A program made the position numbers and the translations under genes. The notes below the pieces were generated by a model, which was not told the DNA's origin, searched no databases, and was given only the letters and a program-made list of their open reading frames with translations. A stretch of 7,363 bases of DNA, taken from positions 1 to 7,363 of IMG/VR virus record IMGVR_UViG_2529292836_000012. One strand, written 5' to 3'. Shown piece by piece: positions 5,919 through 7,363 of this stretch (position 1 is its first letter; each line of letters opens with the position of its first letter). Origin of the DNA: a virus (lineage: Duplodnaviria > Heunggongvirae > Uroviricota > Caudoviricetes).

Positions 5919-6968
5919 TCAAACGATTAAATCCTGAACTTCCCTGACTGTCTGTTCAAAACGTCCGGTCTCCAGCTCAACACCAATCGCACAACGCCCC
6001 AGTGCCATCGCCGCTTTTACCGTTGAACCTGAACCCATAAAAAAATCTGCAACCAGGTCTCCCGGACGACTGCTCGCGTTGATTATCTGCTGCAGCATTT
6101 CTGCCGGTTTTTCGCACGGATGTTTCCCTGGATAGTACTGCACCGGTTTATGCGTCCAGACATCGGTGTACGGAACCTGCGCCGTCACACCGAAATACCG
6201 CCGCAAATTTTTATATTCACTCAGCAGTTCCGTATACTGCCGGTTCAGCTCACTGTATGTGCTGACCAGCTGGTGGTGTGGCTTTTCCAGTTCCCCGCGC
6301 TGATGTTTTTCTGCCGCAACACGCGCAAACAACGCCTGCAATTTATTGTAATCACCCTCGTTCGGTAACTGCCACTGACTGGCACCAAACCAGTGCGAAG
6401 CCATGTTTTTCTTTCCGGTGGCTTCCGCTATCTGTTTTGACGTTATTCCCAGTGATTTACGCGCATCACGAAAGTAAGAAATCAGCGGGGCCATGACGTG
6501 CTGTTTTAGCTCGCGCCCCTGTGCCACATAGCCATCATCTTTCGGGCGATACGGTCCCTGATAATGTTCTGCAAACAGAATGCGCTCTGTTGCCGGAAAA
6601 TACGCCCGCAGACTTTCCTTATTGCACCCGTTCCAGCGTCCGGACGGCTTCGCCCAGATAATGTGGTTCAGCACATTAAAGCGCTCACGCATCATGATTT
6701 CGGTGTCAGATGCCAGGCGATGACCACAGAACAGGTAAAGACTTCCGGCAGGCTTCAGTACCCGCCAGAACTGCGCCAGACACTGGTCCAGCCATTTCAG
6801 GTAATCATCGTCGCCCTCCCACTGGTTATCCCAGCCCTCGGGCTTCACTTTAAAGTATGGCGGGTCTGTGACTATCAGATCGACAGAGTTTTCCGGTAAG
6901 GTCTGGATAAACTCCAGGCAATCAGCGTTGATTAACTCACAACTGGATATTTTTACAGTATTAATCAT
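5919..6968 (-). CDS. DNA methyltransferase (N6-adenine/N4-cytosine family, DPPY motif); orphan, no restriction enzyme gene in window
   Basis: 349 aa with motif IV (LIVTDPPYF) near the N-terminus and the AdoMet-binding motif I (FFMGSGST) near the C-terminus, a beta-class permuted order. A roughly 150-aa variable central region includes an HTH-like segment (LGITSKQIAEATGKK). Confidence 0.92.
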   Translation of the reverse strand: MINTVKISSCELINADCLEFIQTLPENSVDLIVTDPPYFKVKPEGWDNQWEGDDDYLKWLDQCLAQFWRVLKPAGSLYLFCGHRLASDTEIMMRERFNVLNHIIWAKPSGRWNGCNKESLRAYFPATERILFAEHYQGPYRPKDDGYVAQGRELKQHVMAPLISYFRDARKSLGITSKQIAEATGKKNMASHWFGASQWQLPNEGDYNKLQALFARVAAEKHQRGELEKPHHQLVSTYSELNRQYTELLSEYKNLRRYFGVTAQVPYTDVWTHKPVQYYPGKHPCEKPAEMLQQIINASSRPGDLVADFFMGSGSTVKAAMALGRCAIGVELETGRFEQTVREVQDLIV

Positions 6969-7118
6969 AGATCAATAAGCACTTCTCTGATAGGCTCATA
7001 CCGCTTTTGCGCAAAGCAGATGGGCCTGAGGTTTGCTTGTGACCCCAACGCATGAGCAGATGGCTGGCAGGTGCCGCTAACACCCACCAGCCGCCCATTA
7101 CCACAAATTAAAAAGCCT

Positions 7119-7316
7119 TCACTGCGGAAGGCGTCTGTAACAACCGAACTGATAATCTGCCAGACCCGCCATAACAAGCTGAGTCAGTATTAACTGGCAG
7201 CGTTCGCGTGAAAGGTAAGTATTCTGCGCAATTTCCCCGACGGTCGCCGGTTCGGTGACGCTTAATTCATTAAACACCACTCTGGCGGTTTCGGTCATAT
7301 CCTGCTGTTTTAGCAT
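7119..7316 (-). CDS. small winged-helix-like DNA-binding protein (65 aa), hypothetical; may be the 3' end of a longer gene
   Basis: MLKQQDMTETARVVFNELSVTEPATVGEIAQNTYLSRERCQLILTQLVMAGLADYQF…, a PapI/FaeA-like wHTH pattern. The frame is open to the window edge (the track start at 7352 is a TTG). A purine-rich stretch precedes the ATG at 7316. Confidence 0.4.
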   Translation of the reverse strand: MLKQQDMTETARVVFNELSVTEPATVGEIAQNTYLSRERCQLILTQLVMAGLADYQFGCYRRLPQ

Positions 7317-7363
7317 GCCTTTTTCCCTTTTCCGGTTAACGTGACATACCAATACCTCTTGTC

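Follow-up and report, generated by a model that had tools for sequence, protein, structure and literature searches.

A late-region M.EcoGII-family adenine methyltransferase of a lambdoid prophage and the conserved cassette around it

Positions 1 to 7,363 of the IMG/VR virus record IMGVR_UViG_2529292836_000012, the whole stretch analysed and hereafter the window, encode on the minus strand (5919..6968) a 349-aa beta-class N6-adenine DNA methyltransferase (MTase), recognized as an orthologue of M.EcoGII by its open reading frame (ORF), its match to PF01555, and its identity to that enzyme. In our best explanation, to which we assign a probability of roughly 70%, this is an intact, late-expressed member of the M.EcoGII family that would protect phage DNA by methylating adenines independently of sequence, the lack of specificity being argued from homologues, the timing from gene position, and the benefit from the protection conferred by M.EcoGII in vitro. 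The analysis establishes that the gene belongs to this family, retains intact motifs, is under purifying selection, occupies a late-operon position, and lacks an endonuclease partner. As a methyltransferase, the gene is another copy of an already characterised family and ordinary in itself; what may be new is the conserved and apparently undescribed cassette formed by a small winged-helix ORF, a structured leader, and the MTase.

Family membership and target specificity

The window protein is identical to M.EcoGII at 318 of 349 positions, at equal length (349 aa) and without real indels, when compared with the reference given in Supplementary Table S1 of PMC11551740, which was machine-read from the PDF and carries errors at family-invariant positions. 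M.EcoGII, from Escherichia coli O104:H4 C227-11, is a non-specific adenine methyltransferase that acts in any sequence context (Murray et al. 2018, NAR 46:840, PMC5778455); the activity ascribed to its family extends to dsDNA, ssDNA, and RNA. Its discoverers also treated as promiscuous M.EcoGI, which is identical to it at 333 of 349 positions, and named the MTase of phage 1720a-02 as a close homologue (PMC5778455). The locus of that phage shares 89.6% DNA identity with the window across the small ORF, the MTase, and the tRNAs; among phage records we found no copy identical to M.EcoGII, the best reaching 93-94%. Two reconstructed relatives, Anc291 and SUPREM, with 70-84% identity to M.EcoGII, act on both DNA and RNA and are for the most part non-site-specific (PMC11551740), and the window protein, 86% identical to Anc291 and 71.5% to SUPREM, sits within the clade spanned by the three enzymes. 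By sequence, the window ORF is thus an intact member of the M.EcoGII/M.EcoGI family, and since the tested members of the enclosing clade all lack site specificity, the window enzyme likely has none and most likely methylates adenine regardless of context. The preliminary description, made from the letters alone, had held that the target specificity could not be read from the sequence; in practice, the closeness to M.EcoGII (~91%) and the non-site-specific behaviour of relatives at 70-84% allow such a reading.

The ~27-32 substitutions relative to M.EcoGII, K150Q included, are concentrated in the target-recognition domain (TRD) and the linker. A conventional sequence-specific orphan MTase, directed at one motif and serving regulation or defence against one restriction system, would agree with the name "site-specific DNA-methyltransferase" that NCBI gives to the window protein and its relatives, with the full-sized TRD carrying a helix-turn-helix (HTH), and with the TRD being the most variable segment. 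That name, however, is a generic PGAP label rather than a result, and probably misleading for this protein. The 91% identity to a non-specific enzyme, the non-specificity kept by relatives down to 70%, and the occurrence of most TRD differences in active non-specific enzymes make sequence-specific recognition unlikely, 21 of the 32 differences from M.EcoGII being residues that occur in Anc291 or SUPREM.

The MTase is the sole long ORF at exactly 5919..6968 and starts with ATG. Its match to PF01555 (N6_N4_Mtase; E=2.6e-44) extends over residues 29-340 and profile positions 1-219 of 221; since these residues span nearly the whole 221-position profile, a long insert splits the methyltransferase domain. 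Catalytic motif IV, DPPY, lies at residues 35-38 (6855..6866, minus strand) and is invariant in 45 homologues, among which D308, F309, F310, G312, S313, G314, and S315, in and flanking the S-adenosylmethionine-binding motif I (FxGxG, here FFMGSG, residues 309-314; 6027..6044, minus strand), are invariant as well. The motifs had been described as permuted, and motif IV is indeed N-terminal and motif I C-terminal, but the arrangement is no peculiarity, as an N-terminal DPPY, a central TRD, and a C-terminal FxGxG within PF01555 define the beta class to which CcrM, M.RsrI, and M.MboIIA belong. The enzyme is not of the Dam type.

In the AlphaFold2 model, the insert (residues 146-255; 6204..6533, minus strand) is all-helical, with helices at 146-173, 177-184, 190-194, 204-223, and 231-255. 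The pLDDT (predicted local distance difference test) is ~80-89 over most of the insert, the mean of 70.6 for the whole model indicating moderate confidence; confidence is mostly good in the Rossmann core and the helical insert, while residues 101-145 and 255-286 are poorly modelled. The poor stretches overlap residues 97-110 and 116-140, where the SUPREM paper places the homodimer interface (PMC11551740). Published AlphaFold2 modelling of M.EcoGII shows the TRD as a four-helix bundle at 160-237 containing an HTH (PMC11551740), and the window model agrees with it, displaying the helical-bundle TRD of the family. An HTH-like segment in the insert had been presumed to be the target-recognition region; the modelled helices and the published M.EcoGII model bear this out, with weak sequence support from sub-threshold matches (E~0.05) to HTH_3 and Pou at residues ~156-190. 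The best PDB sequence matches, M.BceJIV, M.RsrI, CcrM, and M.MboIIA, each cover the two core halves only, and a Foldseek search with the model returns the same beta-class N6A/N4C enzymes. They have the Rossmann core and motif order in common with the window enzyme, from which they differ in being sequence-specific (CcrM, GANTC; M.BceJIV, GTWWAC; M.RsrI, GAATTC; M.MboIIA, GAAGA), in showing only 16-21% identity in the fold alignment, and in lacking the 110-residue helical insert.

Compared with 110 full-length homologues, the protein departs from positions conserved in at least 90% of them at only three residues, T89, Q150, and Y278, all outside the catalytic and S-adenosylmethionine-binding motifs, Y278 being common to M.EcoGII. 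The search for inactivating mutations relative to homologues that the preliminary description had proposed found none, and all motifs are intact. Against five orthologues, the Nei-Gojobori ratio of nonsynonymous to synonymous substitution rates (dN/dS) amounts to 0.10-0.12 for the whole gene, with 0.05-0.10 for the core halves and 0.12-0.22 for the TRD, the most variable part of the family, which is still constrained; the gene is under purifying selection. That it might be a decaying, inactive relic in a cryptic prophage is hardly credible: an IS66 insertion in the large terminase gene of the closest annotated genome and the description of M.EcoGII's own prophage as cryptic (PMC5778455) point that way, whereas the full-length ORF, all invariant residues, a dN/dS of ~0.1, and an intact window terminase (682 aa) point the other. 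The exact window protein, moreover, occurs on 68 public contigs, and its 90% cluster holds 3716 members, all labelled "site-specific DNA-methyltransferase".

Late-operon position and proposed role

What remains of the window belongs to the late region of a lambdoid prophage and is carried entirely by the minus strand; it includes genes for a pair of holins, an M15 endolysin, and the small (DUF1441) and large (GpA) terminases, as well as the small winged-helix ORF. No restriction endonuclease-like ORF was found in the window or in the annotated 25-kb prophage context, and the PADLOC models with hits in the window match the MTase only; it is therefore not part of a Type II restriction-modification pair with an adjacent cognate endonuclease, and its initial characterization as a stand-alone, phage-borne methyltransferase holds in both contexts. 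The window DNA recurs at 99.8% identity in several enterotoxigenic E. coli (ETEC) genomes and at ~90% in phages phiP27 and 1720a-02 and in many Stx2a-converting phages. The prophage itself is of the ETEC type and non-Stx, with the lysis genes directly after the tRNAs, and the stretch of small ORF, MTase, and tRNAs is present in 1751 of 5426 complete E. coli genomes (at least 80% coverage), about a third. In the closest annotated genome (L001 5296-7911, against window 216-2264), an IS66-family element, ISCro1, splits the large terminase gene. As the 682-aa ORF is intact in the window, the latter derives from a related prophage that is maybe still able to package.

Upstream of the window, the order of genes was taken from this 99.8%-identical genome, in which DUF968, RusA, and a DUF1133/Phage_antitermQ protein precede a terminator hairpin, the small ORF, and the MTase. 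The DUF1133 protein also exceeds the Pfam threshold for Phage_antitermQ, and ~160 nt after its Q-like gene (L001 13940-13970), arms AACCCGC and GCGGGUU enclose a UUUAU loop followed by U7 (-20.8 kcal/mol, z=-4.3). This hairpin, ~80-100 nt past the right end of the window and not listed by the consensus terminator scan, is probably the tR' of the prophage, resembling lambda tR'. The same scan flagged a hairpin at 7115-7132, between the small ORF and the MTase, which we rejected as a terminator because its energy does not differ from that of shuffled sequences (z=-0.93). No sigma-70-like promoter was found on the MTase strand between Q and the tRNAs. With a Q-like gene and a tR'-like terminator upstream and no promoter between, the MTase is most simply a Q-dependent late gene, and its position suggests that it is probably silent in lysogens, as are M.EcoGI and M.EcoGII (PMC5778455).

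From this arrangement, a course of events can be proposed in which the tR'-like terminator would keep the MTase silent in the lysogen until, upon induction, Q lets RNA polymerase read through into the late operon and the MTase is transcribed. At that stage the MTase would modify a large share of the adenines in phage DNA undergoing replication, and packaged genomes would reach the next host already shielded from many Type I, II, and III enzymes blocked by N6-methyladenine (m6A). In vitro, methylation by M.EcoGII stops at least 18 restriction enzymes, DNA so modified resisting every m6A-sensitive enzyme tested (PMC5778455), and an anti-restriction role is favoured both by its discoverers (PMC5778455) and by a review (PMC12707154). 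The preliminary description had noted that phage methyltransferases can protect phage DNA or alter host methylation; protection, as inferred here, remains the favoured role, while altered host methylation in the lysogen is unlikely given the silence of M.EcoGI and M.EcoGII and the placement of the gene behind a Q-dependent terminator.

Several observations weigh against late anti-restriction methylation of this kind. The TRD is the region most diverged from M.EcoGII, with ~17 of 110 residues differing, and K150Q alters a position showing 96% conservation. Errors in the machine-read reference make the identity approximate, the true value lying at roughly 91-93%, and an exact look-up of three repaired versions of the M.EcoGII sequence found none. 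Neither the Q gene nor tR' is contained in the window. M.EcoGII-modified plasmid transforms E. coli 4-5 orders of magnitude worse than a dam-methylated control, which suggests that heavy methylation may carry a cost, and we found no report in the literature of packaged phage DNA hypermethylated by the M.EcoGII family.

The same poor transformation by hypermethylated plasmids, together with the harm M.EcoGII does to cells under constitutive expression (review PMC12707154), could also be taken as a sign that the enzyme serves mainly in host takeover or exclusion, in that hypermethylation late in the cycle, whether of the bacterial chromosome or of rival DNA, would disturb Dam-dependent processes, transcription, or incoming DNA. 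Expression together with the lysis genes would come at a point where survival of the host is already irrelevant, yet minutes before lysis little time is left for a benefit, and the discoverers of M.EcoGII and the recent review prefer anti-restriction; we regard takeover as the main role as quite improbable, although it is compatible with the anti-restriction role.

A conserved structured leader upstream of the MTase

Between the small ORF and the MTase lies a 150-nt spacer whose mean column identity is 82% in 27 species, far above that of the flanking coding sequence, and which diverges from the window by 0.23-0.26 where synonymous sites of the adjacent gene differ by 0.78-0.80, thus evolving about three times more slowly. 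Alignments A2 and A3 and RNAalifold delineate within it a conserved structured leader of ~105 nt (6993..7097), placed with all its elements on the inferred minus strand. It comprises three hairpins with compensatory changes, P1 (7062-7092), P2 (7032-7060), and P3 (6993-7026), the last with a near-palindromic centre, in addition to a possible long-range helix P0 (7093-7097 with 7021-7025). P0 cannot form together with the outer stem of P3, and the alignment data favour neither. Counts of 28 G-U against 26 A-C wobbles are near-equal and do not single out a transcribed strand.

Run on a 31-species MAFFT alignment to which no structure had been fitted, RNAalifold independently predicts P1, P2, and the long-range P0, the last pairing UGGGC with GCCCA. 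In the two candidate architectures, 11 and 13 pairs are changed on both sides, compared with 4.1 and 4.6 in column shuffles (0/500), and the covariation scores are 0.176 and 0.184, compared with 0.078 and 0.086 in shuffles and at most 0.10 in all slid registers, figures to be read bearing in mind that the sequences are related and that P2 was first spotted by eye. Compensatory changes affect seven of the nine P1 pairs, and in the more diverged leaders of Lonsdalea, Symbiopectobacterium, Yersinia, Serratia, Chania, and Rosenbergiella, the two P1 arms have both been substituted yet remain complementary. In P2, pair 50-74 is seen as CG, UA, AU, and UG and is never unpaired.

For P3, the near-palindromic centre admits an alternative reading as a DNA operator. 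Bearing on the choice between operator and hairpin are a symmetric change in one locus (L042) at positions unable to pair in the hairpin (GCTTTAACGTTAAAGC), and the Serratia and Chania copies, which carry non-palindromic loops.

Linkage was sampled in 80 loci, one per species, at 64-91% protein identity. The leader abuts the MTase start codon in 55 of them, ~18 of these being without a detectable small ORF, and likewise in 114 of 118 informative viral contigs carrying its 21-nt core, the four exceptions all carrying an AraC cassette (see below). The ATG has no evident Shine-Dalgarno sequence before it; instead, a conserved UGAUC occupies -8 to -4, so that a GATC (Dam) site lies at -7 to -4 (window 6969-6976, minus strand), conserved at 90% or more across genera. 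On A2, RNAalifold pairs GCU..UGAUC with GGUCA..AGC of P2, in columns that are invariant and give no covariation signal. In Trabulsiella odontotermitis (L014 3015-3083), a second, partial leader covering profile positions 3-71 (P1 and P2) occurs ~900 nt upstream of the full copy.

Rfam 15 yields no match to the leader at E<=1 over the whole window, and only chance-level miRNA and CRISPR matches at E>4 on a 211-nt stretch. A short ORF within the 150-nt spacer, coupled to the MTase by an ATGA overlap, was rejected, since its frame stays open for 0 to 51 codons across species without a conserved start. Nor does the leader fit the prophage small RNAs (sRNAs) of enterohaemorrhagic E. coli (EHEC): HnrS/EcOnc10-12 is 66 nt long, ends in an intrinsic terminator, and is confined to EHEC and enteropathogenic E. 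coli (EPEC), and the EHEC anti-sRNAs are 51-60 nt long and lie 3' of moron genes. The core sequence string was not found in the literature searched, in which we also found no description of the leader or the cassette.

That a self-toxic enzyme has a conserved leader of its own suggests that its expression is controlled. Tentatively, and at somewhat less than even odds, we propose that the leader of the three-part cassette is an undescribed cis-regulatory RNA that would gate synthesis of the self-toxic, non-specific MTase, by analogy with com-mom and using unrelated parts. A switch between helices that exclude each other, either P0 and the outer stem of P3, or an extension of P1 and P2, might bring this about, in response to a ligand that is possibly the winged-helix protein or the MTase itself.

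The winged-helix neighbour, alternative cargo, and precedents

The 65-aa ORF at 7119..7316 (minus strand), a member of phrog_331 that NCBI names a TrmB-family regulator, was assigned as a winged helix from its AlphaFold2 model (pLDDT 91.4), which has the canonical H-b-H-H-b-b topology, and is a conserved upstream partner of the MTase. The ORF list gives a 77-aa version starting at TTG; the ATG at 7316 is preceded by a purine-rich stretch and matches RefSeq. A homologue lies upstream of the MTase at a near-fixed distance in 53 of 75 species loci, even at 37-50% identity, and at a fixed distance in 110 of 114 viral contigs, its conservation alongside M.EcoGII-family genes spanning the Enterobacterales. 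Fold matches are generic, all at E>=1e-3, and include IclR/MarR DNA-binding domains, the N-terminal winged helix of O-methyltransferases, and the RNA-binding winged helix of SelB, for which reason we dropped the fold as a guide to a ligand. The protein could be a regulator or a partner subunit.

The second of these roles has a precedent in M.EcoPA8orf6770P, an MT-A70 enzyme from a prophage that needs the winged-helix protein PNB-2 bound to it in order to methylate 16S rRNA (Gong et al. 2023, PMC10810198). The physiological substrate of the window enzyme might accordingly be RNA, or its choice of substrate might be redirected by the upstream protein acting as a second subunit, an analogy to which the methylation of RNA and DNA:RNA hybrids by M.EcoGII in vitro, the retention of the winged-helix ORF directly upstream of the MTase, and the SelB and methyltransferase winged helices among the fold matches would lend themselves. 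M.EcoGII alone, however, is fully active on DNA, on which it works ~90 times faster than on RNA (Table S3, PMC11551740), PNB-2 works with an enzyme of another family (MT-A70, with DPPW), and ~18 species loci retain the MTase and leader without a detectable small ORF, all of which render an RNA or partner-directed substrate improbable.

Identity with M.EcoPA8orf6770P, an rRNA methyltransferase of Stx prophages, is ruled out, for that enzyme is encoded in the early region and is of the MT-A70/DPPW type. The two systems resemble each other in pairing a prophage adenine MTase with a small winged-helix protein encoded directly upstream, co-transcribed in the PNB-2 system (PMC10810198). M.EcoPA8orf6770P, in contrast, is nearly inactive alone and prefers 16S rRNA, whereas the window enzyme is of the PF01555/DPPY type and its homologue M.EcoGII is highly active alone on DNA.

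Com of phage Mu is a zinc-finger RNA-binding protein, whereas the small protein of the window is a winged helix; Mom makes another modification and is not a PF01555 enzyme, so that the comparison is an analogy with the layout alone in common. In that layout, the gene of a small protein directly precedes that of the enzyme, whose start codon follows a structured stretch of mRNA, and in both cases a temperate phage carries a toxic, broad adenine modification that is silent in the lysogen and late (review PMC12707154). The window cassette is homologous neither to com-mom nor to PNB-2/M.EcoPA8orf6770P. The alpha-class promiscuous adenine MTases of the M.HaeV type (Drozdz et al., cited in PMC5778455) likewise have relaxed or absent adenine specificity, with a different architecture in which the motif order is reversed (FxGxG-TRD-DPPY). 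The closest parallel remains M.EcoGII/M.EcoGI, with 349 aa, ~91% identity, the DPPY-TRD-FxGxG order, a helical TRD with an HTH, a lambdoid prophage, and no endonuclease partner; the window copy differs by the substitutions described above, by its ETEC-type, non-Stx prophage, and in that its activity is predicted.

Downstream, the first of three tRNAs begins 49 nt after the MTase stop codon on the same strand, the trio (5620..5869, minus strand; ARAGORN and Rfam), which we treat as context only, consisting of an ileZ-like tRNA (CAU), argN (UCG), and argO (UCU). ARAGORN calls the tRNA at 5794-5869 (minus strand) tRNA-Met(CAU), while RefSeq gives tRNA-Ile for the identical gene and Stx-phage records give ileZ, an identity that implies a lysidine-modified CAU anticodon. 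The MTase had been described as embedded upstream of the tRNAs, and three do follow here, but the association is a lineage-specific accident, found in 3 of 77 informative species loci, all of the Escherichia type, and we reject it as a functional feature.

In four viral contigs (L099, L137, L163, and L182), a cassette of low GC content (0.40) with the gene of a 237-aa AraC-family regulator takes the place of the MTase together with P2 and P3, with the breakpoint just after P1 and homology resuming at the tRNAs. This swap between P1 and the tRNAs suggests that the MTase position is a moron slot with alternative cargo. In Stx2a_1447, an O157:H7 Stx2a phage (L002 3716-6746), the module of small ORF, MTase, and ileZ-argN-argO lies directly upstream of stx2A and stx2B, so that the MTase homologue would share the late transcription unit of the toxin.

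The identification has corrective value, since thousands of "site-specific DNA-methyltransferase" entries have as their closest characterised relative a non-specific, toxic enzyme, one that is sold, as M.EcoGII, as a chromatin-footprinting reagent. In some Stx2a phages, MTase expression would be tied to toxin expression, which may affect the crossing of restriction barriers between strains. If the leader and the winged-helix neighbour control the MTase, this would account for the safe carriage of a non-specific methyltransferase by phages, and the leader, if it exerts such control, would represent a new class of RNA motif.

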